64,000 nucleotides of DNA from a virus. Where the stretch lies: IMG/VR virus record IMGVR_UViG_3300015203_000007, positions 2,036 through 66,035 of that record. One strand, given 5' to 3'. Positions 12,617 through 59,705 of this stretch are shown piece by piece; the stretch's first letter is position 1, and the number at the start of each line of letters is the position of its first letter. The notes beneath the pieces were generated by a model that made no database searches, was not told the origin of the DNA, and worked only from the letters and a program-made list of their open reading frames with translations. A program made the translations under genes and the position numbers.

Positions 12617-12704
12617 CGGATGCTGTGGGAATCGAACCCACGGGGGCTTTCTAGTTCCCCAGCCGCTTTCTAGGCGGTGTCCTCGTCCGTGCCGGTCAAC
12701 ATCC
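12617..12704 (-). tRNA. tRNA-Ser(AGA), class II, no encoded CCA
   Basis: Acceptor GGATGTT/AGCATCC, G73, anticodon arm CCGC-CTAGAAA-GCGG, long variable arm GGGG..CCCC, T arm GTGGG-TTCGATT-CCCAC. Confidence 0.8.
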
Positions 12705-13091
12705 GAGAATGCCAAAAACCAACCGGGCTGCTCGAAGACTCGGGGATCTTCGTCCAGAATCTAGTCACCGGATTGGTTTTGGGTTTTGAGGCACCTATGC
12801 GCCGTGCCTCCCTGCGCGTGTAGTCCGGTTTCTTGTTTACCGGAGAATCAGGATGTAACTACAATATTTTTCATAATATGTAGGCCCTGACTACCAAGCG
12901 TCTGCTGCTAACAGTGCCGATTTCTCGACAAGATCCGTCCGCGCCCGCTAAGACTCGGCTGCCGTATCCTCCCTCGCCGGTTGGCCCTGGTCAGATAAAG
13001 CTTTTCGATCCCCGGTTGTACCCGTGCCCGTTACACAAAGGCTTTTACGGGTGTCTACAGAGTCTCGGCACCGTCGTGCTCCGACTCCATA
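12705..13091 (-). ncRNA. candidate large structured non-coding RNA (~385 nt), family unknown
   Basis: No credible ORF; at least 8 helices visible, including a 10-bp long-range stem; own promoter at 13097-13124. Confidence 0.6.
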
Positions 13092-13096
13092 TCTGG

Positions 13097-13124
13097 AAGA
13101 TAGCAGACTTCTAGGGCTTGTCAA
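13097..13124 (-). promoter_or_regulatory. sigma70/SigA-type promoter, extended -10
   Basis: TTGACA-N16-TATCTT with TG at -15/-14; near copy of the promoter at 54942. Confidence 0.75.
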
Positions 13125-13347
13125 GGAATCCGCTCGGAACTTCTCCGAGGATCCTCTTGGCGAGTCCTTCGATTGCGTCCGGCGCAACCGAATGGAGATC
13201 GTGCGCTACGTCTGCGGTGGGATCATCGACCCACCCCTTCTTGGCCGTCCAGACCTGAACCGGCTTGAATGCGGCCTTGCGGTAGATGTCTCCTACGCCG
13301 TAGTAGTAGCTGAAACCCTTACCTGGTGCGAACATATCAGTCGCCAT
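13111..13347 (-). CDS. small hypothetical protein directly downstream of the multi-enzyme effector
   Basis: 78-aa ORF, TAATG overlap with the 877-aa gene stop. Confidence 0.6.
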   Translation of the reverse strand: MATDMFAPGKGFSYYYGVGDIYRKAAFKPVQVWTAKKGWVDDPTADVAHDLHSVAPDAIEGLAKRILGEVPSGFLDKP

Positions 13348-15980
13348 TACTTGCCCTTCTCTGCTGGAACGATTGTGACTGGAACCTTAGAGAACCCATG
13401 CTTCTTGGCTGCCGCATGAGTAGCGTTCCCATCAATCACATCATACCTACCGTCATCACGCTTTGCAACCTTGAGCGGTGCACGCTTCTCGATCTTTCCT
13501 GCTGCGGCATCGCGCATACGCTTCTCGGCGGCAGGAACCCTAGTGCGAACCTCATCATCGGGCTTCGTGGACTTGAGATCGCGCACGTTCACCATCTTGG
13601 ACTTGGAATCCGTCTTGAAGTAGTCGGAAGGCTTATCGGGAAGCTGATCGAAGCCCACGATCTTCTCCCAGACGCCGTTGTACAGCGCCTTCATCTTGGC
13701 GTCGAGAGCTTCGACCTTGTCTTCGTCTTCCTTTGTCGGCCCACCGGGCTTACGCTCCATCGAACGCTGTTCTTCGTACATGGCGTGACCCTGGCCGTTC
13801 TTCGCTAGGAACATCTCATTCCAGTTGAACTGTAGCTCGATCTGGAATCCTGTGTCCGTCTCAAGGCGAATCGCGAGATCACGGTATCCAGCCTTTGTTG
13901 CCCCTCCCACTCCGGGACGGCGCTTGTCTTCGTAGAGCTTGGATTCCATCTCAGTGATGTTCCATCCACGCTCTTCGGCGTGCTTCATCACGCTTCGTAG
14001 CGCGTCAGCGATATTCGCAGGATGTGGCACTAGAACTGTGGCACGTACCAAGTCAGTGATCTTCGACCAGTCACCATTGTTCTTGTCAGAAGACACCTTC
14101 TCGAATGCAGCGTCATATGTCTTGTTGGGAGCAATGACAATGTGATTGTCATTCTTGTGCGAAGCGACGTACTCCATTGCTGCCTTGAATCCAACCTTGG
14201 AACTCTCAGCGGAAGACACGTCATGCACCTTTGCGCCAATGTCCTGCTCTACGCCGACACCCATATCCAGTAGGAACTTGAAACCGTGCAGCGCGTGATT
14301 CGCCATCTCGAATAGCTCGTCATCGTCCTTTGTCGGCTGTAGCGCCTTATCGACTAGTCCCGCCATCTGCGCTTCGGTCAGAGAGTCTTCGATGTCGTCC
14401 TGTAGCTTGCCCTCGAATGCCTTGACCTGATCGTCATGGGAAAGCGCATCCTGCTTCTCGTTAATCAGACCACGGCCGAACTGCTTCATCCACTCGACGC
14501 GATCCTTTAGCGCCTGCCGGACGTTCTCTCTCAGCGCAAGGTCTTCGTAGGGAGCCTGGTCTACCAAGTGGTCAATGGCGTCAGGGGTAAGACGCTTGGC
14601 GATCTTCGTAGCCTGCTCACGCTTCTGTAGCGGAGTCACGATCATCTTGCCCTTGGCCTGGCCTCCACCTTCCATCATCGACCAGACTTCGCCGGGAGTA
14701 GACCCGAAAGGCTTCGTAGCGCCCTGCGCACGGAAAGACAGCGTTCCACCCTGGTCTAGACGCATCGGCCCCTTGTCAGTCCAAAGGATGTTGTCATCTG
14801 TCAGTCCAATGACATCCCAATTGGCTAGGAGGGCATCGACCATGAAATTCTTTCCAAGCGTTTCGCTCGGCTTGATCTTGTTGATCGTTCCGTCTGCGGC
14901 AGGGTATGTGAGAGCGGTGCGTCCCTGGTGCTCAATCGAACCCGCGCGTGGAACTGGAACGTCCATCGCTCGATAAATGGCGTTCGCTAGTAGCTCTGTG
15001 GCAACACGATCCTCATTGCCATTGTAGTGCTTGAGTAGCCATCTCTCGTCAGGATGTGGAGAGTAGTCACTGAGGATGCCCTTGTCGCGACCACGGTTCA
15101 ATAGCTTGTGTGCTTCGTTCGGTGGCACAAGCTTGAATCCCCACGTCTCCGGGTTGGATACTGGGCCATCGTTTCCCGTGCGATCAGCGATGTACATTCG
15201 CGTGGTAGTAGTGTCACCATCGTAGTCACCTAGATATCCGGCGATCTTGCCCTTCAATCCCGTCTCTTCGTAAAGCTCGCGATGCGCGGCCTGCTGTAGA
15301 GACTCGCCGGGATCCTTGTGTCCCTTGGCGAAGGTGTGCTCGTATCCACCAAAGTGATTCGATGGCTCACGTAGCCAAATACGACCGTCAGGCTCACGTA
15401 GCAACATCCCGGCAGACTCGATTCCCTTGCTGTCAGGCTCGTTCACGTTTACGTCAGGCGGAAGCGCATATGGCGCTAGGGGTGCGTGACCCATCTCGGC
15501 CAGAATGCTGTTCGCTCTCTGCTCGGCGGCGTCATGCGTATCGAACTCACCGATCACCTTCTGCTTTTCGTACGTTCCTGCGCTGTTGTCGATGAGCTTG
15601 TGGACGTGATCCTTCTTGTCTTCCTTGATGAGCAAGTGACCGCGCTTAGACCCACCCCAGGTGTGTTCCCAATCGTGCTGAATAGAATGCGGAATCGGCT
15701 TTCCGCCCTTACCAAAAGCCTCTGTCTTCGTGCTAGTTGGTTCCATGTGCAGAGGATGTGCAGAAGGTGTCGCCCACTTAGCGCCATTCGATCCTCCTGC
15801 CGGTGCGCCGATCTTGAGCTTCTTGTTGAAATACTTCGGCATCTTGAACATCGAACCGAAATGTCCGTGGAAGCCGCGCTTGTGCTTTGCCTCGAAAGCC
15901 GGATTCTTGATCTCATGCTGAATGTAGGCAAGGTTGATCCGATAGCCGCGCTCTGTCTCTGTCAGGATTAGATTGTCCAC
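13347..15980 (-). CDS. polyvalent protein: Nudix + atypical kinase-like + RelA/SpoT alarmone synthetase + ParB/Srx-like
   Basis: Perfect Nudix box GHKDPGESLQQAAHRELYEETGL; kinase-like LLKHY..E, NWD..G...DNIL, RLDQGG; RelA/SpoT EK..DLVRAT..GYRD..ELQ..GH..YE; C-terminal VIDGNATHAA. Confidence 0.75.
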   Translation of the reverse strand: MDNLILTETERGYRINLAYIQHEIKNPAFEAKHKRGFHGHFGSMFKMPKYFNKKLKIGAPAGGSNGAKWATPSAHPLHMEPTSTKTEAFGKGGKPIPHSIQHDWEHTWGGSKRGHLLIKEDKKDHVHKLIDNSAGTYEKQKVIGEFDTHDAAEQRANSILAEMGHAPLAPYALPPDVNVNEPDSKGIESAGMLLREPDGRIWLREPSNHFGGYEHTFAKGHKDPGESLQQAAHRELYEETGLKGKIAGYLGDYDGDTTTTRMYIADRTGNDGPVSNPETWGFKLVPPNEAHKLLNRGRDKGILSDYSPHPDERWLLKHYNGNEDRVATELLANAIYRAMDVPVPRAGSIEHQGRTALTYPAADGTINKIKPSETLGKNFMVDALLANWDVIGLTDDNILWTDKGPMRLDQGGTLSFRAQGATKPFGSTPGEVWSMMEGGGQAKGKMIVTPLQKREQATKIAKRLTPDAIDHLVDQAPYEDLALRENVRQALKDRVEWMKQFGRGLINEKQDALSHDDQVKAFEGKLQDDIEDSLTEAQMAGLVDKALQPTKDDDELFEMANHALHGFKFLLDMGVGVEQDIGAKVHDVSSAESSKVGFKAAMEYVASHKNDNHIVIAPNKTYDAAFEKVSSDKNNGDWSKITDLVRATVLVPHPANIADALRSVMKHAEERGWNITEMESKLYEDKRRPGVGGATKAGYRDLAIRLETDTGFQIELQFNWNEMFLAKNGQGHAMYEEQRSMERKPGGPTKEDEDKVEALDAKMKALYNGVWEKIVGFDQLPDKPSDYFKTDSKSKMVNVRDLKSTKPDDEVRTRVPAAEKRMRDAAAGKIEKRAPLKVAKRDDGRYDVIDGNATHAAAKKHGFSKVPVTIVPAEKGK

Positions 15981-16888
15981 GTAGCGAACGCCTTAGCTCT
16001 GTTGGGATACACGTCGGCGTACTTGATTCCGCCCTTGAGAATCCCACCGTGACGGACAGACTTCATCCACCATGCTAGGGCTTCTACGAAATCCGCCTCT
16101 GGGCCTCGACCGTTAGCGAAATAGCTCATCTCTGGGCCACCGACTAGGAACTCTGGGCCAATGAGAGCACTGAGAGACGCATTGTTCTTCTTCTGATACT
16201 TCATAGCGAACTGCTGACCGGCGGACTGATCTGCCTTCTGTGCGGCTTCGTAGGTCTTCGTGCTGGTCGGAAGAAGAGCACGCGCCACCACAACATCGAA
16301 AATCTGCTCGTTCAGCTTCGCTCCTGTGGTTCCCACGTTCCAGAAAGTTACCTCTCCGTCATTGGAAGTCACGATGGTAGGATCATCCGTCTCGTCTTCG
16401 GGATTCGGCCCCTGGCTCAACGTCACTGTAACGTCTTCTCCGGCCTTTTCAGGTAGAGGGGATAGGAGATATGCCAATCGTGCCGCAACTGTGGTAGGAG
16501 GCGTCTGAGATCCCTCTACATGAACGATGGCACCATTGATCGTAGTCGTGAAATCATCACCGTCCTGTTCCCACTTCAATGCTCCGGCAGTCTTCATGGC
16601 TGTACGCTGCACTGCGGGATTTTCCGGCGTCTCTTCACCGAACCGCTTTGGAGCATCGGGAGTTAGAGACGGTGGAGCATCGGGAGATGCGCCACGAAGC
16701 TGATCTGTCGGCACTGGCCCGTTGTAAACTGCACGCGCCATGAACTGCTGCAAGTCGATGTCCTTCGGAAAGGTCATCCCGTAAACAACCGCGACAATAT
16801 CAAGGCATGCCTTCCAGCGTACCTTATCATCATCACTTCTTACGAATAGCGGGAACACTGTTCCCAGTGGGTTTACATTGGCGTCCAT
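15968..16888 (-). CDS. hypothetical protein with C-terminal zincin/lethal-factor-like remnant
   Basis: SYFA...PEADFVEA...YP.R pattern resembles the MPTase C-terminus, but no HExxH is present. Confidence 0.45.
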   Translation of the reverse strand: MDANVNPLGTVFPLFVRSDDDKVRWKACLDIVAVVYGMTFPKDIDLQQFMARAVYNGPVPTDQLRGASPDAPPSLTPDAPKRFGEETPENPAVQRTAMKTAGALKWEQDGDDFTTTINGAIVHVEGSQTPPTTVAARLAYLLSPLPEKAGEDVTVTLSQGPNPEDETDDPTIVTSNDGEVTFWNVGTTGAKLNEQIFDVVVARALLPTSTKTYEAAQKADQSAGQQFAMKYQKKNNASLSALIGPEFLVGGPEMSYFANGRGPEADFVEALAWWMKSVRHGGILKGGIKYADVYPNRAKAFATWTI

Positions 16889-19800
16889 GTGCCTCCGTCA
16901 ATCTGATTCTTGATGTTGGTAAGAGTAGTCTTGAAGTTCTTAGCGAAGCTCTTACCCTTCGTGCTGCCTAGAACCTGCAAATGGATGTTGTTTCCATCTA
17001 CACTCATTACCTGATACGGCCGGATCTCTCCGTCGTCATCGCGGATCGTGAAAGTGTCTCCCGTTGCAAGCTTCTCTACGTCAATTGTAGCAGAAGGGGC
17101 ATCCACGGGCTTGACATTGATGGTACTCTGATCGGTTGCGATCTTCTTGACTAGGGTTGTGCTCTTGGCGGGCACTTCCAGCTTCGTTGGCTGACCATCG
17201 ACATTCGTAGCCTTCTCGACCAAGAAGAACTTGCCCTCATGCGAGGTTCCCGTGATCTTCCAGACCCATCCTGTGTTCGTCTCGAAGGTGTCACCCGTTC
17301 CAAGCTCGTTTACCGGCACCTGTTCACCCGGTAGCGGCTCTCCGGCCTCCTTGAAAGCGTCATGCGCCCAATCCAGCGGCTTATCGAACTGCGTCGCTAC
17401 GCGAGCTACGGCCTCCTTCTGAGGGGTACCCGATTCCACCGTTGTGCGAACCGCCTTGACGAAGGATTCGGCTTGTGGCTTTGTGGGAGTCGGATACCCG
17501 ATGAAAGGATACGTCTGTGCTGCATTAGAAACGTAATACTCTTCTCCGGTCTTCTGTGAAGTAACCTTGGACACGGCATTAGCATATCTTTCAGTGACTA
17601 CGAAGAGATTCCCCGCATCACCAGGGATTCCCTGAGTAGAGAGAGTGCTGTTCGCAATAAGAATCTTGTCGCCCGTCGAATTCTCACTCATTGTGCGACC
17701 AGTCTCATCATAGAGAGACGTGTCTAGCTCATTTGGAGTCCATGTGACTTCTTCTGGCGTTGGCGGATCTACTGCCACTGGCGGTGCTTCTGCGGGGATC
17801 AGAAGATCGACCATCTTGTGACCGAACTTTTGAATCAGATGTGGTGTGACCGTAAGCGTGTCCTCCTGCGCAGATCCCGGAGTCTTGTCTACGGCCTTGA
17901 TCGTACGAGAACCGTCCGCATTCTGAGATACGAACTGCCACTTCCAATATTCGCCGTTGACAACCTTTTGTCCGTAAATGTCACCGACCTGTAGTTCATT
18001 GCGAGACACCTGAGTTGCGACCATAGGCGTAGGCGGTTCTACCACTGCTGCGGGAGGCGGTGGCGGTGGAGTTGGAATCGGTGTTGGTTCCGGTGTCACT
18101 CTGACCGGCTTTGGTACTACGCTTGGCGCAACCTCTGGTAGCGGTGCGGCTTCTACCGGCGTGTTGTCACCACGGCTCACGAACTCTGCGCCCTGCTTGA
18201 CAGCGTTGGAACCATTGTTCAGTGCGAAATCAGTGTGAGCCGGATCTAGAGACTTGAAAGAGAAATACGGGTGGTCGGACTTTTCGACCTGAGCCAAGAT
18301 CGGCGTTCCTCCGTAATTGTTGGAAATCACCTTCACCTTGTCGCCAACCTTTAGTTCTGGGAGCGCCACCATCTGACCGGGCTGTGGAGTTGGTTCCTTG
18401 CCGGTGTAGGCTGTCACGCGCAGATTACGCACGCGAGAGTAGGCGAGATTGATTGCGAAATCGTCAGGCTTGGAAAGCCATGCTACCTCTGTCCAGTTTC
18501 CACCCTGTTCGTAGATGCGTCCAATCGCTCCCTTGTATTCGACCAGAGATCCCGCCGGGAAGTAGTTGATGCGCGCAGATCCATCAGGGCCAGTAACGAT
18601 GTCGTAAGGCTCTTCATTGATGCTGTACTTGTCACCCGATGTACCAAGTTCGCGCGTGACGATCTCTCCCGTCGGGTTTCCGTAGCTGTCGAGCATAGCG
18701 AGATCCATCGCGTACTTCGTGTTGTAACTTCCTGTGGCACCCTGCACTACGAAGAACTTTGCGCCTGTAGAGTTGTCACGAACATAGTCACCACGGGTTG
18801 CCGATGCTAGCTGATTGGCTACCAGAGTCTTGGCGTCATAAGCTTCGGTGAACTTCTTCTCCGGCTCGCTTCCATCCTTGGATGCGTGCAGCACAATTGG
18901 CGCGTTGGAGATTCCCCAACTTCCCGTCCAAGACATCGCGGCCTTCTTCTCCATGATCGTCTTGACTTCGCCAACGTGGTTTCCGTTCTCGTCAATCTCG
19001 ATGCCCTTTGTGGTTCTCTTCTGGACGCTCGAAACCACCCAACGCTTACCCTTCGCGTAGATGTACTGACCCTTGACCGGATCCGACTTGAGCGTGTCGG
19101 TAGTGATGTACAGCTTCAATCCCTTGACCGGCTTCGGCCCATTGTTGGCAGACTTGACAAGGAACTTCTTGCTGTCCACTACGTGCTGCTGACCACCCAT
19201 ATCGGCAAGCACTGTCTTGTTTCCGTCATGGCTAACCACCATGTAGAAGTAGTTGGCAGACACGACCATCGCACCGGGCGACCACACATCTACGCTGTCA
19301 ATCAGTGCAGACTTCTTGGCATATCCGGCAGACTCAGACGGATTTGGGGAAACCTCCGGGTGATGTTCTGCTACTCCGTAGTGGATCAGTTCAGTGTCGG
19401 GCGGAAATTCTCTTAGGGCAGGCTTCGGATTGACATTGTTCTTTCCGTGGACGTCCTTGTAAGCGTTCGTAATCGCTGTTCCGTCAGTCTTGTGACCGAT
19501 TACGACATAGGTCGCGTTGCCGTAGTCCTGTTCGTTCTTCACGACATCGCCAACCTTCAAATCGCTCGCGAAACGGCGACCAGTGTCAATCACGCTGATC
19601 GGATCTGCGCCGGATAGAGAAACCGTGACCGACTTGCTGCCCTCAATGTCGTCACCATTCTTGTCTACCGGCACAAGTGTTGCAGTAGTTCCGGAGTCAG
19701 GCTCTTCTACGCGCCACTGAGTACCGTTCTTCGTCTGGATGATGTATCCGCCGCGAGTATCGCCAATGATCGTGTCATAGCTCTTGCCCTGTGGCAGAGA

Positions 19801-22800
19801 TGCAGGACGGAAGCTGTCAGGAGTCTTTAGGTCTGTGTCGGTTCCTAGGAACGTGTACATCGCACCGGCATCGTAGAACGGCTCTGGTTCACCCGTCTCG
19901 TAATTGACGAACGGGTTCTCGCGCACGTTCGGTGCCTGTGCGATCTTGAGCTTCACGCCGTCACCGGTCTGAACCACATCGCCAATCCACAACTGCTTGG
20001 CCGGTACGGACTGGCCTACTGTTGGACGCTCTGGGGCTGTCAGCACGTTCACGTACTGTTCTCCGTCATAGAGTGCGACATTGCCGTCTACGCGAGCACT
20101 TCCGTATCCATCCTTGATGGAACGTGTGATCTTACCGTTGATGTACGTCTCGCCCGGAAGACTCTCGATCTGATCGCCTACATTCAGATCCTTGACCTGA
20201 GCCTGCGTCTTCCCCACGCCCACGAACATCTGTGGCTTTGCGGGGATTCCAGACGGCACGACCTTGTTGGCCTTTTCAAGCTGTGTTGTTGGTGCCTGGT
20301 CAGTGGTCGGGTTCGGAGACGAAATGTTGACCATATCGCCCTCGAAAGAGTCAACTCGCCAATAGCGTCTGTTGTAAACGAATGTGTCGCCCACCTTCAA
20401 GTCCTCTAGCCACGTAGTACCGGCGTAAGGGCCAACGGTCTGGGCGTCAACTACGTCAAGCGGCTCACGACGGGTGTACTTGACCTTCTGTACTGGCGTG
20501 ACTTCACCGAACTGACCACGAAGGTGCGTGTGGCTAGTTCCCGTGTACGTGGCGAAAATCTTGCCATCGTTCGTGATGTTGGCAATCTTTAGCTCGTCAC
20601 CGTGCTCGTCAGTGAAGACATCACCTAGTCCAAGGCGCTGTAGGTTGACCGTCTCACCGATCTTTGGTGGCGGCGGTGGCGGATGTCCTTCCTTGAGAAC
20701 GGCAACCGGGTACGATCCATCGAATGTGCGCTCTGTGTCGGGCAGTGGCACATTGTCGTCATCTACCTGAATGGCGCGAGTCTCTTCACCGTGCTTAGCA
20801 ACCTTCAAGACCTGGAAACGCTGTCCCCACGGTGTAAGGACAATTGCGTCCTCTAGCTGATCGGGGAACGTGGAGTGAGTCTTAGCCTTGAGGTATTCAT
20901 CCGTCCAGTCAGGAACCTCCACAGCAAGGTTGACAACCGGAACCTTTGTGTCATCATTCGGAATCTTCCACATCTTCTGATCGCCACCCGTGACGTTGTA
21001 CGGAGCGAGAAAAAGAACTCCCTTGTGCTCGATTCCAATGTGCTGCCACTGATTGCCTTCTGTGTCTTCGACTACCTCACCGATTCCAAGATCGCTGGCG
21101 CGAACTCTCGGCTTTGCCTGAGAGAACTCGTCTTCTGCCTTGAAGGTCTTCTTCTCGGGAGTGACCTTGGCACCAAGCTTGTCGGCGTACGAAGTCGCAT
21201 CGACACCGTTGATGTCAACCTTGTCGATGTGCCAAACGGTACCATCAGCGTCAGAGAAGAAACTTCCCGCCTTGTAAGAACCGACAGGCTTCTTTGGCTC
21301 AAGGAATCCCTGCGACCACGCCTTGATGCTGTCCCAGTAAGATCCCGGCTTTGGCTTTCCTGTTCCCGACAGCGCATTCATCTTCTTCCACGTCTCATCT
21401 CCACCGGGCCAATATCCTCCGGCCTTGGTGATGATCGTGTTGTCGAGATCGAAGAACATCTCCTGCTGAACCACGTACTCAGCTTCACCGGGGGAGTGAA
21501 GTGCTGTCAGGTGATTAAGAACCGCAATCTGGCGAATCGGCATTCGAGCCACGATCATGCTACCACCACTACCGAATCCTTCCATACCCATGTTCGTAGT
21601 CCACGACAATCCACCGTAATACGGATATCCACCGGCTAGTGGGCCATGTGTAATTCCTGGCGCGCTTTCAGCGTACTGAGCTTCTTCGGCCCACTTCTGA
21701 GTCAAGTCAGGATCGGTGTTATTGAAGTGGAAGAGAATGATGCTGGGGTCACGGATACGATTGTAAAGATCCCACGAAGCCACATCTCTCATGTTGTGCA
21801 GGAGATTGTTGGCGTTCATGTACCGCTGAGAAATCTTCTCCGGATCCTTCGATCCGTAGATGTTCATGTTGTTGTTGCCGGTATTGTGCGGGAAAAAGTA
21901 GTCGAAGATGAAACCTAGATCGGTAGCAAACTTGCCTGTTCCCGCCTGCTTGCTTAGAGCATTGGAGATATCCTGATTCGCTGTTCCCTCGGCGGCGTTT
22001 CGCACCTTGGAAATCTGATGCTTACCGGATCCGTCAGTCCAAGCACCAAACTTCTCAGTCAGATCGTTGTAACGCTTCTGATCGTTCGCACCAAAGTTCT
22101 CCCACTGCGCATCCGTCAGGGATCCGTTCTCATGCTGCTTGATGCTCGGATCGTGCGGAGCCGTATCTGGCGTATTGGAAATAGCCGGACGACCGAATAC
22201 CGTTACATCGTCACTAGTCGTCGGAGCGATGGTATGAGCAACACCCTTCTTGGCTGCTAGGTGCTGTGGGTAGTAGCCTTCCTTCGGCGAATTCTTGTAT
22301 CCAGCGTAAGCGGCGATGGCAGCTTCGTTCTGCGCGTTGTCAACATGCACCAAAAGCGTGTTTAGCTTGTCAAGCGTGAAATCGGCAAAATCGGTCACGA
22401 ATGCGGCCCACGTTTCGTGGTACTCGGGAGCCGAATCGTCCTCTGGGGCGATTTGTGGCCATTCCTTGGAAGCCTCTTCCTTGGCTAGTGGCGTATCGAG
22501 CGTAACATCGGCCATACCAATCATTCGAGCGGTAGGAGCCACATCGAAAGGATTCACTCCAACCGGCTTTACCTCTACATAGCTCTCGCCCGCTCGACCA
22601 GTGACTTCCCACTCAAGATGGTTCGCATCCTGGAACTTCGTGCCTACCGGCAGATCCGAAAGCTTCGTCTTGTCACTCTTCGAAGGCTTTGGCGTCTCGA
22701 TGACCGGAGCCTTCGGGATGACCGTACGAAGCAACATGCGCGCGATGACCTTATCGCCTGTGGCACCCTTAGCGCGGAATAGCTGTAGATCCTCGATATC

Positions 22801-51152: not shown

Positions 51153-51584
51153 TTAGTCCAGAGTCATTACTAGCGACGTGGCCGGAAGCTGCGGCGTGTC
51201 GCCAACCTGAATCGTACGGAAAGGTGTGATGTCCGCGATCCATAGGAGGTTTCCAGATGTCAGTGCGTCGAAGGCACCTACTGCTAGCACCTGTCCCCAG
51301 TCGGCCGTTACGTCAGCCGGGAATGTGATAGCTACCGCGTTCCACTTGGAAGTAATGAACGGCGTTGCGCCTGTTGTCGCGTTGGCGAAGTTCACTGTGG
51401 AGTTGGCTAGAGCTACGCGAGCGTAACCGTTACCTGCTACCTCTCCACCGGCAGAACCGTCGTCTAGCGGAGTGGACAGGAATAGACCGAAATAGACCGT
51501 TGCGGGAACTGTCAGTGTTAGGTTCCCGAACAGGGCATCCATGAAACGACGCTCCTGCAAAGTTGTCATACTTGCTGCTGCCAT
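51153..51584 (-). CDS. phage tail-fibre-associated structural protein
   Basis: VYFGLF..P...G..GEV.G.GYARV, ITFP..T..WG.V...G.FDALT.GNLL family pattern. Confidence 0.7.
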   Translation of the reverse strand: MAAASMTTLQERRFMDALFGNLTLTVPATVYFGLFLSTPLDDGSAGGEVAGNGYARVALANSTVNFANATTGATPFITSKWNAVAITFPADVTADWGQVLAVGAFDALTSGNLLWIADITPFRTIQVGDTPQLPATSLVMTLD

Positions 51585-52663: not shown

Positions 52664-52708
52664 AAAACAGCCCTGTCTCAAAAACCTAACATGAGACAGA
52701 GCGGTTTT
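52664..52708. terminator. hairpin terminator
   Basis: CTGTCTCA/TGAGACAG stem flanked by A- and T-tracts. Confidence 0.45.
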
Positions 52709-52717
52709 TATTAGTGC

Positions 52718-53447: not shown

Positions 53448-53485
53448 GCCGAGAGCGTAGCACATGTGGATCGAGAACGGAATCC

Positions 53486-53515
53486 TTGACAAGCGGAGGG
53501 ATGACCTGATAGGAT
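53486..53515 (+). promoter_or_regulatory. sigma70-type promoter for the plus-strand block
   Basis: TCC-TTGACA-AGC (same 12-mer as the 13119 and 54942 promoters), N18, TG-n-TAGGAT. Confidence 0.55.
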
Positions 53516-53732
53516 CGCGCCCGCAGTGACCATATTAGGGGCTATGCTATGCTCCATCTACTCAGTCGAAAGGTGCCGCCGCGAGGTTTAGAACTTCGCG
53601 GGGCGTCCTCTGGGGACAGCAGTGGGTACTACATCCGCAGAGAGTGTATATACTCGATCCCCTACGGGGATATGTAGAACATCAAACTACCCCATGACAG
53701 ACTTTTAGCTTTACACGAAACGAGAGGGAGAT

Positions 53733-54932
53733 ATGGCACCAAGAGCAGATGCGTCTTCGGACAGGATCAAAAAGACATTTCTCAAGGGAACAGATATGGA
53801 TTCCGAGAAGGTCGATCTTGTTGTGGAGAGATCACAGGATCTTCAAGAAGTCACCTGTCTGATCGAAGAGCGTCCAGTCGTCATCTTCTCATCGAATGCT
53901 GCCGGAGAGGTAGTAGTCGATGTGAGACAGCAAGACGGAATAAAGCTAGCAGGAGATGTCGGACACGGAGATGATGACAAGAGGGAACTAGCATCTGCAT
54001 GGCTAGAAGGACAGGGTACGAACTGGCGTGATGATGGCAGCGAAGTGGTTTTCACTTTGTCGAAGGGACAGGCTTCCATCGCATTGCCTAAGGCTGACAA
54101 GCCGGGTATCCTCACTCCGACCAACATCCATCCGGTATACGGACAGCCGGATATGCTCTTCGCAATCGCGATGGGTATTGAGTACGGAGATCACACGATT
54201 CTCTCCGGCCCTACCGGAACGGGAAAGACTACGGCATACGCTTTCCTAGCACAGCTACTCAACTGGAATTTCGTCCGCGTACAGATTGACCCTAAGACAG
54301 AGGGTGCTTCTCTCGTCGGCGAATATCTCCCAGTAGGAGCGGGACATTTCGAGTGGTGTGATGGGCCTGTGACTGAGGCAGTAAGACTTTCCAAGGATCA
54401 CCCTACGATCCTAGTCCTGGATGAGCTTTCTCGCATCGGAAATGTGGCAGAGCTTTCGCGTCTCTACTCTCTGCTAGATGACGGTAGGAGACTAGCCATC
54501 CCAGAGAAGTCGCATGAGAACATGGGTGAGCCGGAAGTCATCTTCCCCGGCAAGCTTTACATCGGTGCGACCATGAACCCTGCCGATGATGAAGGAGCGG
54601 ATTACATCGGTGTGCGTGAGCTTGACCCGGCTTTGATGTCGCGGTTCGCATTCGCACCGGAGGTTCACTACCCCACGCCGAAGGTCGAGACGAAGACTCT
54701 CTGTGACCGCGTTCCCGGTCTGTCTCACGCGCACGCGGAGAGAATGGTCAAGCTCGCGAACTCGATCAGGGATTCCGCCGAGATCATGTACCCGATGTCT
54801 TTCCGCGAACTGGTAGCGTGGGCGAAGGCATTCCCCTACTACGGGTTCCAGCCTGCGGCGGAAGTCGCGTTCGTGAAGAAGGCGCATCCCACGTATCAGG
54901 GCGACATCCGGCGCTTGCTCAGCATGGTCTAA
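53733..54932 (+). CDS. MoxR/CbbQ-type AAA+ ATPase
   Basis: LSGPTGTGKTT, VLDELSR, ATMNP, LDPALMSRF, SFREL. Confidence 0.85.
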   Translation: MAPRADASSDRIKKTFLKGTDMDSEKVDLVVERSQDLQEVTCLIEERPVVIFSSNAAGEVVVDVRQQDGIKLAGDVGHGDDDKRELASAWLEGQGTNWRDDGSEVVFTLSKGQASIALPKADKPGILTPTNIHPVYGQPDMLFAIAMGIEYGDHTILSGPTGTGKTTAYAFLAQLLNWNFVRVQIDPKTEGASLVGEYLPVGAGHFEWCDGPVTEAVRLSKDHPTILVLDELSRIGNVAELSRLYSLLDDGRRLAIPEKSHENMGEPEVIFPGKLYIGATMNPADDEGADYIGVRELDPALMSRFAFAPEVHYPTPKVETKTLCDRVPGLSHAHAERMVKLANSIRDSAEIMYPMSFRELVAWAKAFPYYGFQPAAEVAFVKKAHPTYQGDIRRLLSMV

Positions 54933-54941
54933 ACGAATTCC

Positions 54942-54969
54942 TTGACAAGCGTCAAAAGTGTGCTACCTT
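54942..54969 (+). promoter_or_regulatory. sigma70-type promoter of the tRNA array
   Basis: TTGACA-N16-TACCTT, extended -10 TG. Confidence 0.75.
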
Positions 54970-55014
54970 TCAGATATGCCGACCGAGGGGGAAACCCCGG
55001 AGTCGGCTCCACAT

Positions 55015-55049
55015 GCCGGAGGGGTTCCGCAAGGGCCTCTCCGGCACCA
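55015..55049 (+). ncRNA. candidate CCA-ended minihelix RNA
   Basis: GCCGGAGGGG-TTCC-GCAA-GGG-CCTCTCCGGC-ACCA, preceded by the CACAT leader seen before several tRNAs. Confidence 0.4.
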
Positions 55050-55054
55050 AATAA

Positions 55055-55128
55055 TTGGATGTAGCTCAATCTGGTAGAGCGCGCGGTTTGGGGCCGTGAG
55101 GTTGGAGGTTCGATTCCTCTCATCCGAA
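55055..55128 (+). tRNA. tRNA-Pro(TGG)
   Basis: CGCGG-TTTGGGG-CCGTG anticodon arm; TTCGATT T loop. Confidence 0.9.
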
Positions 55129-55194
55129 CTAGGTTTGTCCACCTTCCCTAAAGCAGTTGATAACGTGGATGACGGTAGGAAAGACTACGCGAAT

Positions 55195-55268
55195 GGGGGT
55201 TTAGCTCAGTCCGGGAGAGCACCTGCCTTGCACGCAGGGTGTCGTGGGTTCAAATCCCACATCCTCCA
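55195..55268 (+). tRNA. tRNA-Ala(TGC)
   Basis: CCTGC-CTTGCAC-GCAGG; G3:U70, A73. Confidence 0.92.
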
Positions 55269-55282
55269 CTGCACGACCACAT

Positions 55283-55354
55283 TGCCGATTAGCTCAGCGG
55301 GAGAGCACTTGGTTTACACCCAGGGTGTCGGGGGTTCAAATCCCTCATCGGCTA
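55283..55354 (+). tRNA. tRNA-Val(TAC)
   Basis: CTTGG-TTTACAC-CCAGG; U1-U72 mismatch. Confidence 0.9.
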
Positions 55355-55418
55355 CTAGAACTTCGGCAGCGGTCGCGCTGAATCGAGCACCGAAGGGCAA
55401 GTTCACGTCAGCGCACAT

Positions 55419-55491
55419 GGAGACGTAGTTCAATCGGCAGAACACCCCGCTGTCTACGGGGAGGTAGAGGGATCGTAACCCTTCGTCTTCG
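55419..55491 (+). tRNA. tRNA-Asp(GTC)
   Basis: CCCCG-CTGTCTA-CGGGG; G73; atypical ATCGTAA T loop. Confidence 0.88.
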
Positions 55492-55506
55492 CTCTAAACA
55501 TATCTC

Positions 55507-55579
55507 GCCGGGTTAGTTCATCTGGTAGAACGCCTGTTTTGTACTCAGGAGGTGGCGTGTTCGAGTCGCGCATCCGGCG
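55507..55579 (+). tRNA. tRNA-Thr(TGT)
   Basis: CCTGT-TTTGTAC-TCAGG. Confidence 0.85.
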
Positions 55580-55593
55580 CTTAGTAGATCGAC

Positions 55594-55607
55594 GTTCTTT
55601 GACAACT
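55594..55607 (+). promoter_or_regulatory. boxA-like antitermination element
   Basis: GTTCTTTGACAACT resembles rrn boxA (GYTCTTTRAMAA). Confidence 0.5.
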
Positions 55608-55645
55608 GACTTGTGAAATGCCGCGCGTCATTCTTACGCGCACAT

Positions 55646-55717
55646 GCCGTTGTTGCCGAGTGGCTAAGGCAATGGGTTGCAACCCCATTAACACTGGTTC
55701 GATTCCAGTCTTCGGCT
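55646..55717 (+). tRNA. tRNA-Cys(GCA)
   Basis: ATGGG-TTGCAAC-CCCAT; U73. Confidence 0.88.
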
Positions 55718-55739
55718 CTCAGAGAGAAAGGGGAGAGCA

Positions 55740-55958
55740 ATGAGCAAGATGGATATGACTCGCGCGAGTGACAAGATCGAGAGAAGCTTGTACATGCCGG
55801 GGGAACATCTCAGCACGGGTAAGCGCAAGATCATCTGCGAGAGAGCAATGGATATGACGTGGCTCACCCTTTCGGGTGATAGCGGAATACCGTTCGTCAC
55901 GATAACGTTGGATGCAGAAGGACACTTCAATCTTGAAGTGGATCAGAGCCAACTCTAG
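55740..55958 (+). CDS. hypothetical protein inside the tRNA array
   Basis: GGGGAG RBS, 72 aa. Confidence 0.55.
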   Translation: MSKMDMTRASDKIERSLYMPGEHLSTGKRKIICERAMDMTWLTLSGDSGIPFVTITLDAEGHFNLEVDQSQL

Positions 55959-55969
55959 AGAGAGAGCAA

Positions 55970-56626
55970 ATGAAAAGAATCATCGCAGGACTGATCGCTG
56001 TCTGCGCACTAGCACTTCCAAGTATCGCTTCGGCGCACTCTGGAACTGTGACGTGTGATACGACGAACGTCGTGTTCACGTATCACGCTGACTTCCCGCT
56101 GACAACTACTGTCACGGAGAAGGCAGGGGCAGTAACGAAGACGTTCAGTGTTCCCGCACACACGGCTGTTACGGATACCATTCCGTACACACCTTCCGGC
56201 GGAAACAACACTATCGTCGCTAGCTCTACATGGGTCGGTGGCGGGAGTATCCCTCCCACTACCCTCATCTGTGTCGGCCCGCCCCCTACGCCGAATCCTA
56301 CGCCCCCTGTGCAGCCTCCTGAGTGTGCAGCGGCGTGTCCCACTCCTACCCCTCCGGCGCGTCCTTTCTGCCCAGTAGGCGAGTCCGAGCGCAGCTACGA
56401 AAACGGGATCCTGACGTGCGTAGTCACGGTGATCGTGAATCCACCGGTTCCACCAACTCCGGTCTTCCCGCTTTGCCCGAAGGGAACTACTTCTCTCGGC
56501 GTCAAGCACGGAGTGATGGTTTGCCAGAAGGTCAAGATCAAGGTGGTCTACCGCGTCACGAAGATCGTGCGGTGGGTGCAATGGTGCCCGCTTCCGCCGC
56601 ATCACAAGCCCGGTGTCGCCGGTTAG
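55970..56626 (+). CDS. secreted Pro/Cys-rich protein
   Basis: Signal peptide MKRIIAGLIAVCALALPSIASA; beta-rich domain; two P.CP.G......G...C repeats. Confidence 0.7.
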   Translation: MKRIIAGLIAVCALALPSIASAHSGTVTCDTTNVVFTYHADFPLTTTVTEKAGAVTKTFSVPAHTAVTDTIPYTPSGGNNTIVASSTWVGGGSIPPTTLICVGPPPTPNPTPPVQPPECAAACPTPTPPARPFCPVGESERSYENGILTCVVTVIVNPPVPPTPVFPLCPKGTTSLGVKHGVMVCQKVKIKVVYRVTKIVRWVQWCPLPPHHKPGVAG

Positions 56627-56663
56627 GCGAGGGGCGCACCTGAACGTCCTGCTATCGACGGGC

Positions 56664-56691
56664 TTGACATCCTGGGTAAGATGTGTAAACT
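56664..56691 (+). promoter_or_regulatory. second tRNA-array promoter
   Basis: TTGACA-N16-TAAACT, 10 nt upstream of tRNA-Arg. Confidence 0.65.
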
Positions 56692-56701
56692 GCCCTTACA
56701 C

Positions 56702-56774
56702 ACCTTCTTAGCTCAGCGGACAGAGCATCTGGCTACGAACCAGACGGTCGGGGGTTCGATTCCCTCAGAGGGTT
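56702..56774 (+). tRNA. tRNA-Arg(ACG)
   Basis: TCTGG-CTACGAA-CCAGA. Confidence 0.9.
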
Positions 56775-56921
56775 CTTGACAACGCGGGTTGCAAACCGCA
56801 GTCAACCTACGCGACAGAGGTTACACGTCGTCGGTAAGTAATGCTATCGTTACGAGCATTGCCCCTCTGTGGTGGGGAAACGCTACTGTCAGTGGGTTGA
56901 TCGCCTCGACTGACACCCCAA

Positions 56922-56994
56922 TGGCTTGTAGCTCAGTTGGTAGAGCGCCACTCTGATACGGTGGATGCCGAAGGTTCAAGTCCTTCCAAGCCGA
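56922..56994 (+). tRNA. tRNA-Ile(GAT)
   Basis: CCACT-CTGATAC-GGTGG. Confidence 0.9.
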
Positions 56995-57084
56995 TATTCG
57001 CTCGAATTCTAGAAGTCGCGCGAAGACGCTCCTACTAGGCCAGTAGGAGATCCGGCGTACCGATGGGTAGTAGCCGGACTATTT

Positions 57085-57158
57085 GCCTCCGTAGCTCAAT
57101 TGGTTAGAGCAAGGGCCTCTTAAGCCCGAGGTTGTAGGTTCGAGTCCTACTGGGGGTA
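57085..57158 (+). tRNA. tRNA-Lys(CTT)
   Basis: GGGC-CTCTTAA-GCCC. Confidence 0.9.
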
Positions 57159-57324
57159 CTACTCTTCATCGGCTCCAAAAGATGTGTCAGCATCGAATTA
57201 GAGTCGGCAAGCATTGGACTGACATCCCGTGTGAGTTTCGGGGGCTATACCCGAGTGGAGAGCTAAACTAACCGTCCGGCAAGGTGACGGCGATGTTGAC
57301 ACTAAAAATCCTTGCTCTAAACTT

Positions 57325-57397
57325 TGATCGGTAGTTCAGTAGGTAGAACGCACGGCTGTTAACCGTGATGTCGCAGGTTCGAGTCCTGCTCGATCAG
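57325..57397 (+). tRNA. tRNA-Asn(GTT)
   Basis: CACGG-CTGTTAA-CCGTG; G73. Confidence 0.92.
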
Positions 57398-57411
57398 CTA
57401 GTACCACACAT

Positions 57412-57486
57412 GGTGTCGGGGGAGCCTTTGGCGGCTCTGTCAGGTTGTGACTCTGACCGCAGCGAGTTCGATTCTCGTCCTTCACC
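57412..57486 (+). tRNA. tRNA-His(GTG) with encoded G-1
   Basis: TCAGG-TTGTGAC-TCTGA; G-1:C73; two acceptor mismatches. Confidence 0.8.
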
Positions 57487-57564
57487 CTACCGGGCAGTTG
57501 CCTTCTCTTTGATGGGGATTAAAGCTGACGCAACGCGAGTGACATTGATCTCACCCGGTTTCAT

Positions 57565-57639
57565 GGACAAATAGCTCAGCTAGGTAGTAGCGCCTGTTTG
57601 AAGCACAGGAGGTCGCACGTTCGATTCGTGCTTTGTCCA
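57565..57639 (+). tRNA. tRNA-Phe(GAA)
   Basis: CCTGT-TTGAAGC-ACAGG. Confidence 0.9.
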
Positions 57640-57653
57640 CTGCACGACCACAT

Positions 57654-57734
57654 GCGTTAGATGGGTGCTGGATTACCCAAGAGCCTGTAAAGCTCCCTCC
57701 TTCGGGAATGTTGGTTCGAGTCCAACCTGGCGCA
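57654..57734 (+). tRNA. tRNA-Tyr(GTA), class II
   Basis: GAGC-CTGTAAA-GCTC; variable arm TCC-TTCG-GGA. Confidence 0.88.
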
Positions 57735-57749
57735 CTCTGTAGTACATAT

Positions 57750-57824
57750 GCCGTGTTGGGCGAAGTTGGTTAAGCCGCCACCCTCTCAAGGTGGAAATTG
57801 CGGGATCGTACCCCGCACACGGTA
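57750..57824 (+). tRNA. tRNA-Glu(CTC)
   Basis: CCACC-CTCTCAA-GGTGG; atypical ATCGTAC T loop. Confidence 0.85.
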
Positions 57825-57828
57825 CTCT

Positions 57829-57907
57829 GGGGGTGTAATGGTATCGACAGGGAGTAAAGCCGCACGCGGAGACTCCTTGCATCCGGGTTCGATTCCCGGC
57901 ACTTCCA
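57829..57907 (+). ncRNA. tmRNA-like RNA reduced to the tRNA-like domain (no mRNA-like domain)
   Basis: 5' GGGGGTG-TAATGGTATCGAC (stemless D loop, TCGAC); P2 AGGGAGT/ACTCCTT; T arm CCGGG-TTCGATT-CCCGG; acceptor with G3:U70 and A73. Confidence 0.75.
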
Positions 57908-57960
57908 TAGAGGCAGATGCCGCCGTACGCGCGACCAAGATTCTGTAAAGCATCAAACAT

Positions 57961-58032
57961 GCCGTGTGAGACAATTGGATGAGTTGCCGGACTTTCACTC
58001 CGGAGAAACGGGTTCGATCCCCGTACACGGTG
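57961..58032 (+). tRNA. tRNA-Glu(TTC)
   Basis: CCGGA-CTTTCAC-TCCGG. Confidence 0.9.
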
Positions 58033-58053
58033 CTTTGTGATATGATGGGGCGC

Positions 58054-58743
58054 ATGAAGATCGTTCCCATTTCGGACACCCACGGATTGCATCGGTGGGT
58101 TGGAGAGAGAGCACGCGGGGCCTATGGTCGCGACGTTCCTAAGATCCCGATGGGCGATGTCCTGGTTCACGCCGGAGACTTCTCCGGCTTTGGCGAGCGC
58201 ATGGAAACCATTGATTTTGCTGATTGGGTTATGAGCCTACCGCACAAGCACAAGGTTGTGATCGCGGGAAACCATGACTGGTTCGCTTTCAACAATCCGC
58301 TCGAAACGGAACAGCATTTCTCTAGGCGCGGAATCCATTACCTCTGTGATTCTGCTGTGACAATCGAGGGTGTCAAGTTCTATGGCACTCCCTACACGCC
58401 CATGTTCTATGACTGGGCTTTCATGGAGAGCGAGGATGAACTTGCAAAGAGATACGCGAAGATCCACACTGACACGGATGTCCTCGTCACTCATGGCCCA
58501 CCCTACGATATCCTTGACCAGAATCAACAGAAGATCCGTACGGGTTCGGTTGCCCTTGCTAATCGGATCGCTCAAGTACAGCCGCGACTCTCAATCTTCG
58601 GCCACATCCATGAGGGTAGGGATCCGCGTTGGACTTCTCAGGGGACATTTCAAGGTGACAAAACGACGTTCTATAACGTATCGTTTTTGAACATGGCATA
58701 CAAGCCTTACGGCATTCCTCAGCCGGTGATTGAACTTGGTTAA
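58054..58743 (+). CDS. calcineurin-like metallophosphoesterase (MPPED-like)
   Basis: SDTHG, HAGD, GNHD, THGPP, GHIHE; real start after tRNA-Glu. Confidence 0.9.
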   Translation: MKIVPISDTHGLHRWVGERARGAYGRDVPKIPMGDVLVHAGDFSGFGERMETIDFADWVMSLPHKHKVVIAGNHDWFAFNNPLETEQHFSRRGIHYLCDSAVTIEGVKFYGTPYTPMFYDWAFMESEDELAKRYAKIHTDTDVLVTHGPPYDILDQNQQKIRTGSVALANRIAQVQPRLSIFGHIHEGRDPRWTSQGTFQGDKTTFYNVSFLNMAYKPYGIPQPVIELG

Positions 58744-58882
58744 GCCACTCATCACCCGGCAGGATGTTGTCACGGGATGGTGTCCCGCCTGTAACAAGAT
58801 CACTCAGATGATCTGGACTAGATCACATACTCAGTGCGCTAACTGCCACACAATCGTGCAGTCGTGCTGCGAAGGAAACTAG
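58736..58882 (+). CDS. 48-aa Zn-ribbon peptide (not in ORF track)
   Basis: MVKPLITRQDVVTGWCPACNKITQMIWTRSHTQCANCHTIVQSCCEGN. Confidence 0.55.
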   Translation: MVKPLITRQDVVTGWCPACNKITQMIWTRSHTQCANCHTIVQSCCEGN

Positions 58883-58954
58883 CCCACTTAGCTCAGTGGA
58901 CAGAGCGGCGGTCTTCTAAGCCGCTGGTCGGGGGTTCGACTCCCTCAGTGGGTT
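58882..58954 (+). tRNA. tRNA-Arg(TCT)
   Basis: GCGGT-CTTCTAA-GCCGC. Confidence 0.9.
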
Positions 58955-58958
58955 CTAC

Positions 58959-59041
58959 GGATGATTGGCAGAGCGGTAATGCAGCAGATTGCTAATCTGT
59001 AAAGGGTCACTCCTTCGAAGGTTCGATTCCTTCATCATCCG
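58959..59041 (+). tRNA. tRNA-Ser(GCT), class II
   Basis: GCAGA-TTGCTAA-TCTGT; long variable arm; G73. Confidence 0.9.
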
Positions 59042-59064
59042 CTCAACGAGAGAAAGGGGAGGAA

Positions 59065-59460
59065 ATGTTCTACACGTTCTATCAGAACAACAGCGGTGGA
59101 TCTTTCCATGAGAGTCACGGGATCTGCAATCACGTCATCGTGGAGGCAGATAATGCCAATGACGCAAACAACCGCGCAGAGAACATCGGCCTGTACTTCG
59201 ATGGTTGCAACAAGGGCTTTGACTGTTCGTGCTGCGGAGATCGTTGGTACCCTGCATGGCGCGAGGAAGGCACTCAGAAGCCCATGATCTACAGCTTGGT
59301 CGTGGAATCGGGAACGGAGGACACGCTCAACATGATCGACTGGTGCGATTACGTAGCGTGGATTCATTACAAGGATGGCCGTGTCGAAGGCTTCAAGTTC
59401 ATCGACGGCGTGCTAGAGAACGTCGTGGACGGAGAGCCGAAGAAGGAACTGAATCCCTAA
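59065..59460 (+). CDS. conserved phage hypothetical protein
   Basis: MFYTFYQNNSGGSF...VIVEA...AN..AE.IGLYFDG...DCSCCGDRW. Confidence 0.7.
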   Translation: MFYTFYQNNSGGSFHESHGICNHVIVEADNANDANNRAENIGLYFDGCNKGFDCSCCGDRWYPAWREEGTQKPMIYSLVVESGTEDTLNMIDWCDYVAWIHYKDGRVEGFKFIDGVLENVVDGEPKKELNP

Positions 59461-59505
59461 GGGGATTAGGGTGGGGCGCGACATACCCTGAAATAACGCG
59501 CACAA

Positions 59506-59589
59506 GCGCGAGTGGCGAAATGGTAAACGCGCCGGGTTCAAAACCCGGTGGAGTAGCCCTCCATGTGGGTTCGATTCCCACCTTGCGTA
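59506..59589 (+). tRNA. tRNA-Leu(CAA)
   Basis: CCGGG-TTCAAAA-CCCGG; long variable arm; A73. Confidence 0.9.
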
Positions 59590-59620
59590 CTCAGAACGAA
59601 GGTGCTACAGTACGATCAAT

Positions 59621-59705
59621 GCGTGAGTGGCGGAACTAGGTAGACGCGCCAGGTTTAGGCCCTGGTGGTGGAAACATCGTGCGGGTTCGATTCCCGCTTC
59701 GCGCA
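59621..59705 (+). tRNA. tRNA-Leu(TAG)
   Basis: CCAGG-TTTAGGC-CCTGG; long variable arm; A73. Confidence 0.9.

Follow-up and report, generated by a model that had tools for sequence, protein, structure and literature searches.

The 64-kb stretch of viral DNA analysed here (the window) comes from IMG/VR record IMGVR_UViG_3300015203_000007, a 66,109-bp single-contig virus that is about 64% complete according to CheckV. Between positions 12617 and 59705 it contains, on the minus strand, a cassette of large effector-type proteins and, in two separate places, tRNA-type RNA genes, including a tRNA array that holds a message-less tmRNA. It is probable that this span combines two independent, already-known kinds of phage module, the effector cassette and the RNA genes, which share a genome with some ordinary embedded genes. 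A first-pass annotation had joined the same components into one possible integrated translation-takeover system. On that reading, injected toxins with a RelA/SpoT-type (SAS) synthetase domain and an ART-like domain disable host tRNAs and translation, the phage supplies resistant tRNAs, and decoys (the mini-tmRNA and a CCA minihelix) neutralise rescue pathways or protect phage RNAs.

The components are distributed independently among other phages. The SAS profile, run against IMG/VR, matched 21 loci, and the ten longest records, six of them at least 89% complete, were searched whole. The numbers of tRNA matches in these SAS-bearing records were 0, 1, 0, 1, 3, 1, 0, 0, 1, and 1, and the mini-tmRNA was absent from all ten; as a positive control, the same method finds 17 tRNAs in the record of the phage itself. 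The 45 mini-tmRNA loci recovered (4 viral and 41 from metagenomes) encode no relative of the cassette or array proteins, their sole protein match being a small open reading frame (ORF) unrelated to the claim. Mycobacteriophage DS6A, which also carries a mini-tmRNA, has no match to the 877-aa protein that bears the SAS domain. For the phosphoesterase encoded inside the tRNA array, the closest homologues have nucleotide-metabolism or replication genes as neighbours, and no tRNAs are close to them. The expected co-occurrence of the components was thus not found.

An integrated takeover system is considered very unlikely, although several observations speak for it. All of its parts are found in one genome, the near-complete tRNA set is matched to the codons of the phage, and the only CCA ends encoded in the array sit on its leader hairpins. 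In addition, Bordetella phage PHB04 (L065, 268-1582) has, some 9 kb from a homologous SAS gene, three tRNAs and a permuted two-piece full tmRNA whose tag is ANDDYIRAAA. Against it stand, besides the separate distribution of SAS genes, tRNA arrays, and mini-tmRNAs, the apparent membership of the SAS domain in the Tas1-like, alarmone-making kind rather than the tRNA-modifying class, and an ART assignment without support from Pfam, the PDB or a structural model. The two modules are also separated by about 40 kb and differ in both strand and transcription unit, and a distant relative (L001) has other effector domains, with no SAS match detected. The proposal that the phage supplies its own RNAs or counters tRNA-targeting defences fits the RNA genes, given their shared promoter and the recurrent association of mini-tmRNAs with arrays.

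Several points weigh against the reading of two separate modules. PHB04 unites an SAS domain, three tRNAs, and a full permuted tmRNA, so that some association is conceivable. The relatives used for the co-occurrence comparison are of family rather than genus level, because no complete close relative was available; the closest ones are partial (12 kb for L002 and 2 kb for L003). The limited completeness of the record itself has to be added, as does a MuF match of the portal protein that falls short of the Pfam cut-off. Finally, the packaging of the cassette, the product of the synthetase, and the expression and processing of the RNAs are all inferred.

The SAS domain, already proposed in the first-pass annotation, was located by a family profile at residues ~594-760 (nt 13701-14201) of the 877-aa protein (13347-15980, minus strand). 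Pfam used directly did not detect it, and a single-sequence PDB search of the protein gave only a weak Tas1 hint (E 0.11). An exhaustive search yielded 729 homologues of the domain, and a profile built from 40 of them matched Tas1 (6ox6, E 7.5e-19) and SaEAS (8VX3, 1.6e-5), and then RelQ, RelP, and RelA. Pfam RelA_SpoT (PF04607) was matched by 28 of the 40 sequences. All 13 invariant columns of their alignment are retained in the 877-aa protein, which has the catalytic and substrate motifs G-Y-R-D, E-L-Q-x-N, and H-K-L-Y-E together with the basic residues. Chains of CapRel or FaRel2 did not appear among the PDB matches of the family profile up to E 10.

Tas1/Apk1 and SaEAS both make (p)ppApp (PMC10083569; PMC12691689), and for MuF-linked Tas1 homologues of phages (Apk2, from a Bacteroides caccae prophage) this synthesis was shown biochemically (PMC10083569). 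The domain is accordingly placed, from sequence, in the alarmone-making Tas1/Apk clade, and its product would be (p)ppApp, as in its nearest characterised relatives. The SAS effector had been assigned to a class able to block the CCA ends of host tRNAs; this is unsupported, because its nearest solved relatives make (p)ppApp and because neither CapRel nor FaRel2 was matched. That the domain is a tRNA 3'-CCA pyrophosphokinase instead of an alarmone synthetase seems unlikely. Both activities do occur within the toxSAS radiation, where sequence is an unreliable guide to substrate choice (PMC11782079), yet the two nearest solved structures, the family profile, and the biochemistry of the MuF-associated clade all point to (p)ppApp. 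ORFs antisense to the SAS gene and a 78-aa ORF downstream of it were considered as Tis1-like immunity genes, with no supporting match. TAL-effector matches among these ORFs were repeat or composition artefacts, with 0 passing stretches.

The cassette is headed by a portal gene (23147-25684, minus strand), whose product matches Portal_Mu (1.5e-14) and has a weak C-terminal MuF-like region (Phage_Mu_F 0.0028). It is followed on the same strand by genes for a repeat-rich 2074-aa protein (16873-23097), a 306-aa protein with no assigned function (15968-16888), and the 877-aa protein. The latter begins with a Nudix domain (nt 15072-15416; Pfam NUDIX 1.5e-14), for which the PDB matches are Ap4A hydrolase and RppH. 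It continues with a middle domain without assigned family (aa ~312-500), and ends, after the SAS domain, in a weak ParB/Srx-like tail (nt 13365-13604; phrog_1033 3.6e-4, ParB_N 0.003). The gene order is the same in L002, a close relative known from a 12-kb Logan contig, with identities of 56% for the portal-MuF protein, 38% for a 2217-aa protein, 44% for a 317-aa protein, and 52% for the Nudix-SAS protein. In L001, a 54-kb contig from a more distant relative, a 1988-aa homologue of the 2074-aa protein is kept, while the Nudix and middle regions lie inside a 1737-aa LigT/2H protein in which no match to the SAS domain was detected; two Zeta-toxin proteins come after it.

Domains reported from phage polyvalent proteins include RelA/SpoT, ParB, kinase, ART, and MuF (Iyer et al., 2017, PMC5512222). 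The cassette can be assigned to this type because its domain list and the shuffling of domains between L001 and this phage fit that description. At least two unrelated effector domains occur in one polypeptide, the genes are linked to portal/MuF, and the architecture is shuffled among relatives. By analogy with polyvalent proteins and MuF toxins, the cassette proteins would be packed in the capsid and enter the cell along with the DNA. The Tas1/Apk-type adenosine 3'-pyrophosphokinase would then turn ATP into (p)ppApp, lowering ATP and purine synthesis and so damping host metabolism early in infection. The Nudix domain fused to the synthetase may process this product or keep it in check.

An ART-like protein had also been proposed, and the motif claimed for it lies in the 2074-aa protein (nt 21451-21753, minus strand). 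In comparison with the ART catalytic pattern H/R - S/T-x-S/T - E-x-E, only F-H / T-T / E-x-E is invariant in the three known homologues of the protein, a motif that does not by itself define an ART fold. No Pfam model was matched even at E 5, and neither PHROG nor PDB matches to the protein were obtained. An AlphaFold model of the region, made from a three-sequence alignment, reached a pLDDT of 35, and two homology searches with the region yielded one distant homologue only. Its nearest cluster in a protein atlas was DUF4765, at 0.76, under the lead threshold. The 2074-aa protein (residues ~38-65, 22950-23040) and its L002 homologue (1519-8172) have in common an N-terminal motif, WKP(E/N)LHPRWPK...GG(D/E)F, which may be a capsid-targeting handle.

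The RNA genes fall into two units with near-identical predicted promoters. The first of these (13097-13124, minus strand; TTGACA, a 16-nt spacing, and TG-TATCTT) precedes a 385-nt RNA and a tRNA-Ser gene, and its twin (54942-54969, plus strand) precedes the tRNA array. Promoter and start common to both units read TTGACAAGC...AAGT.TGCTA.CTTyCAGATATG, and the two sites are the only ones in the window; when IMG/VR was scanned for the promoter motif, all matches were unrelated ones in AT-rich coding sequence. Both predicted transcripts start with a similar hairpin, with 3-nt internal loops and a tetraloop. Judged from this shared predicted promoter and start, the two units appear to form a co-regulated set.

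Two tandem GNRA-capped hairpins lead the array (54978-55049, plus strand), each followed by N-CCA (UCCA at 55008-55011 and ACCA at 55046-55049). Their fold has an energy of -46.9 kcal/mol (z -5.4), and an AU|G context stands before each of them, as it does before several tRNAs. The window contains only three CCA-ended hairpins; 16 dinucleotide shuffles of it averaged 0.375 and never had two of them adjacent. The CCA minihelix of the first-pass annotation is therefore a real CCA-ended leader hairpin, except that there are two and not one. A search of other tRNA arrays for hairpins of this kind found none in those examined.

The non-coding leader or RNA of 385 nt lies between the minus-strand promoter and the tRNA-Ser(AGA) gene (12705-13091, minus strand). 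A large non-coding RNA under the same promoter type had been claimed here: the shared promoter was upheld, while the RNA itself matches nothing in Rfam and its predicted fold is modest (z -2.57; one of 100 shuffles folds as well). It has no sequence similarity to the syntenic stretch of L002, the one close relative compared. That stretch (L002 11835-12350, syntenic with window 13124-12615) begins with a homologous promoter, TTGACAAGT...TGCTAGGGT, after which come some 190 nt that are non-coding and then the N-terminus of a Ro60/Rsr (TROVE) protein (PDB 1yvp, E 1.2e-12; 2nvo, 8.7e-11). Bacterial Rsr genes usually adjoin Y RNAs, which mimic tRNAs. No TROVE gene was found in the roughly 64% complete record of this phage. 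YrlA, a Y RNA, was considered as a candidate in the array and discarded, as its matches, at 22.7 bits far under the gathering score of 69, were weak cross-matches to tRNAs, and controls gave similar sub-threshold matches.

A further reading, which we hold to be decidedly unlikely, takes the twin-promoter units as a dedicated RNA regulon of tRNA mimics. Because the L002 promoter at the syntenic slot precedes a non-coding RNA and a Ro60/Rsr gene, the 385-nt RNA could on this reading act as a scaffold that resembles Y RNAs and mimics a tRNA. Phages of this lineage would use the regulon to interfere jointly with several arms of RNA quality control in the host (Ro/PNPase, SmpB, and the CCA-end enzymes), perhaps in time with the drop in ATP caused by the injected synthetase. 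The members of the regulon would be the decoding tRNAs, the message-less tmRNA, the two CCA-ended acceptor-stem hairpins, and the 385-nt RNA ending in a tRNA-Ser-like module.

The TLD-only tmRNA predicted earlier was recovered at 57829-57910 (plus strand) with Rfam RF00023, the model aligning end to end (1-374) with about 304 positions deleted. The match is at the threshold of the model, because it scores 47.7 bits (E 7e-17), with the gathering score at 47, and drops to 39.1 bits if the search is confined to a shorter stretch. The acceptor stem, GGGGGUG/CACUUCC-A, has G3:U70 and the discriminator A73, the identity elements of AlaRS. It is accompanied by a tmRNA-type D loop (GG.UUCGAC-like, with no D stem), a P2 helix closed by about 16 nt, and a T arm. 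The RNA has no tag frame, pseudoknots or encoded CCA; ARAGORN called no tmRNA, and the mRNA-like domain of a full-length tmRNA is lacking.

A covariance model built from the mini-tmRNA family (R1) gave 88 bits for the window copy and 56.7 for that of DS6A, and confirmed all of the 4 viral and 41 metagenome loci found with a restrictive pattern. Among the 22 distinct sequences of the family, G3:U70 was present in 21 of 21, compensatory changes occurred in 8 of 18 pairs, and 94.5% of the cells were paired, against 55-66% in slid controls. Neighbouring tRNAs were seen at all four viral loci and at 14 of the 41 metagenome loci; the association of mini-tmRNAs with tRNA arrays thus recurs in other phages. 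About 27 of the 41 metagenome loci (L010-L050), mostly marine and of about 60% GC, have no tRNA nearby, and at two of these ARAGORN miscalls a 323-nt 'tmRNA' that ends at the mini-TLD. The 25 nt at the 5' end of the window copy (57829-57853, with three positions free) match more than 120 bacterial tmRNA genes in genome contigs, mostly from Clostridia/Oscillospiraceae and Cloacimonadota, a weak hint at host range as the region is conserved.

It is highly improbable that the mini-tmRNA is a functionless, decaying remnant of a full phage tmRNA or an attP fragment. The loss of tag frame, pseudoknots, and encoded CCA would agree with decay, and ssrA fragments are frequent in prophages (PMC9004378). 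However, a neatly closed P2 helix connects the two halves of the TLD, the RNA lies in register between two tRNAs of the array, and the same architecture recurs in DS6A, the 4 viral contigs, and the 41 metagenome loci, with compensatory changes and the invariant G3:U70. SmpB titration was proposed as the function of the DS6A RNA (Mao et al., 2009, as cited in PMC4131195). The window copy would likewise most probably compete with host tmRNA for SmpB and/or AlaRS, blocking the tagging of phage nascent chains, as proposed for DS6A (PMC4131195).

The count of 20 tRNAs for 16 amino acids was reproduced with ARAGORN, with none for Gly, Met, Gln or Trp. The Rfam tRNA gathering score was passed by 17 of the 20; Ser(AGA), His, and Tyr were called by ARAGORN alone. 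Nineteen of the genes, none with an encoded CCA, make up the array (55055-59706, plus strand), which is interrupted by small ORFs. The remaining one, a tRNA-Ser(AGA)-like gene (12615-12704, minus strand), ends the other RNA-only transcription unit. Its variable arm is long and its D arm atypical, it carries G73 and an anticodon with A34, and in Rfam it resembles only tRNA-Sec, at 37.3 bits, below the gathering score. Other non-Arg A34 tRNAs, Leu AAG and Thr AGT, occur in unrelated arrays that carry a mini-tmRNA (L005 8105-8184; L007 13258-13336 and 13583-13658), which hints at inosine-type decoding.

Codon usage in the coding genes of the whole window is extremely skewed at 54% GC and mirrors the tRNA set. 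For Lys, 98% of the codons are AAG, alongside tRNA-Lys(CUU); for Leu, the commonest is CTA, alongside tRNA-Leu(UAG); for Ser, it is TCT (TCA, 3%), alongside tRNA-Ser(AGA); ATA and TTA are close to zero in phage genes. Both codon supply and protection from anticodon nucleases have been advanced as hypotheses for phage tRNA arrays (PMC10264068; PMC12482277). The tRNAs would decode the skewed codon set of the phage, so that translation could continue when host tRNAs are scarce, degraded or attacked. In all, two RNA-only transcription units would be fired by the twin promoters, one giving 19 tRNAs, the mini-tmRNA, and the two leader hairpins, and the other the 385-nt RNA and tRNA-Ser(AGA). The leader hairpins are probably processed out like tRNAs, by tRNA-processing enzymes, and could serve as decoys or as processing or stability elements.

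It is possible, if doubtful, that the RNA module is chiefly a counter-defence. The tRNAs would then stand in for host tRNAs cleaved by anticodon nucleases (PrrC, Retron-Eco7/PtuAB, PARIS, Septu, and similar), and the CCA-ended hairpins would soak up enzymes that attack tRNA 3' ends, such as toxSAS of the CapRel/FaRel2 type and nucleotidyltransferases of the MenT type. Such a hypothesis has been published for phage tRNA arrays (PMC10264068), host toxSAS defences do pyrophosphorylate CCA ends (bioRxiv 10.1101/2021.04.30.441581; PMC9712102), and the two tandem hairpins exceed chance expectation. On the other hand, the strong codon match is more simply explained by codon supply, the other arrays examined yielded no such hairpins, and these may be mere 5' stabilisers or processing signals.

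The array is inserted exactly between a gene for an AAA_5/CobS-like AAA+ ATPase (53733-54932, plus strand; Pfam AAA_5 2.7e-19; phrog_249), directly upstream, and one for a CobT/vWA-like protein (59738-61402, plus strand, with the start read from the sequence; phrog_5298 1.4e-10), directly downstream. CobS-like and CobT/vWA-like genes are normally an adjacent pair in phages. The phosphoesterase noticed within the array is indeed a calcineurin-like metallophosphoesterase (58042-58743, plus strand; Pfam Metallophos 3.7e-13; phrog_1649 8.5e-21), and its true start is the ATG at 58042, after tRNA-Glu. Another array gene (59065-59460, plus strand) encodes a DUF7296 protein (Pfam 4.5e-37), whose homologues come mostly from Streptomyces phages, the listed records being of about 50 kb. 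Both the phosphoesterase gene and the DUF7296 gene are probably passengers of the array. A 218-aa ORF in the array (55970-56626) has a signal-peptide-like N-terminus and Cys- and Pro-rich repeats, and no family match.

From 42 kb downwards, the minus strand carries a replication block (helicase, DnaB, primase, Pol III alpha, RecA, MT-A70, and RusA), the terminase, the portal gene with its weak MuF-like C-terminus, and the three large cargo-type genes (together the cassette, 25684 to 13347), and then the RNA-only unit and a glycan-synthesis island. The plus strand from 53.7 kb holds the CobS-like ATPase, the tRNA array, and the CobT-like protein. Near-identity DNA searches found no near-identical phage in the phage collection, a single-protein scan of IMG/VR recovered no relative, and the sole match of the terminase was a Microcystis phage protein with 24% identity. 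A 1593-aa minus-strand ORF (45135-49916) contains a Spherulin4/GH135-like domain (Pfam 7.5e-26), and a fibre protein of the GP4 gp80 type is encoded nearby (51153-51584).

An integrated system, if true, would be a rare phage coupling of an injected toxin to its own replacement translation RNAs; separate known modules in one genome are instead a caution against over-reading gene lists. The published record, with DS6A as its single case, greatly understates how common message-less mini-tmRNAs are in metagenomes and in the tRNA arrays of phages. With its twin promoters, two CCA-ended hairpins, and tightly matched codon usage, the phage offers a compact test bed for RNA function, and the fusion of a Tas1-like synthetase to a Nudix domain raises the question of self-limiting alarmone toxins.

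Among known systems, the cassette most resembles polyvalent proteins and MuF-linked (p)ppApp toxins. As in these, several unrelated enzyme domains (Nudix, RelA/SpoT, ParB-like) share one chain next to a portal-MuF gene, the domain content is reshuffled across relatives, and the synthetase domain is most like Tas1. The synthetase differs in being fused to a Nudix domain and not to MuF or PAAR, and it belongs to a protein of its own, encoded two genes after the portal-MuF gene. A search for immunity genes of the Tis1 or Aph1 kind found none here, and the known part of the record has no temperate signs. With the toxSAS that pyrophosphorylate tRNA CCA ends (FaRel2, PhRel2, CapRel; bioRxiv 10.1101/2021.04.30.441581; PMC11782079), the SAS domain has in common the RelA/SpoT synthetase fold and a conflict setting. 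It differs in having no detectable profile similarity to their solved members and no adjacent antitoxin, and in lying inside a multidomain protein of virion type.

The RNA genes compare with the large tRNA arrays of phage T5, mycobacteriophages of cluster C, and Shigella phage Sf14 (PMC10264068; PMC12482277), which likewise have a near-complete set in one array, small ORFs interrupting it, and a match to phage codon usage. What sets this phage apart is a second, separately placed RNA unit with a twin promoter, the two CCA-ended hairpins that lead the array, and the A34 tRNA-Ser. The mini-tmRNA corresponds to the TLD-only ('CDS-less') tmRNA of DS6A (JN698994, 28478-28560; tmRNA Website tmID 11587; PMC4131195; PMC11915505) in its G3:U70 acceptor stem, stemless tmRNA-type D loop, P2 helix closed by a short loop, T arm, and lack of a tag frame. 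DS6A has a single tRNA, located elsewhere, whereas the window copy belongs to a 19-tRNA array, and it differs further in having no encoded CCA. The message-less tmRNAs of mitochondria and plastids are further known counterparts.

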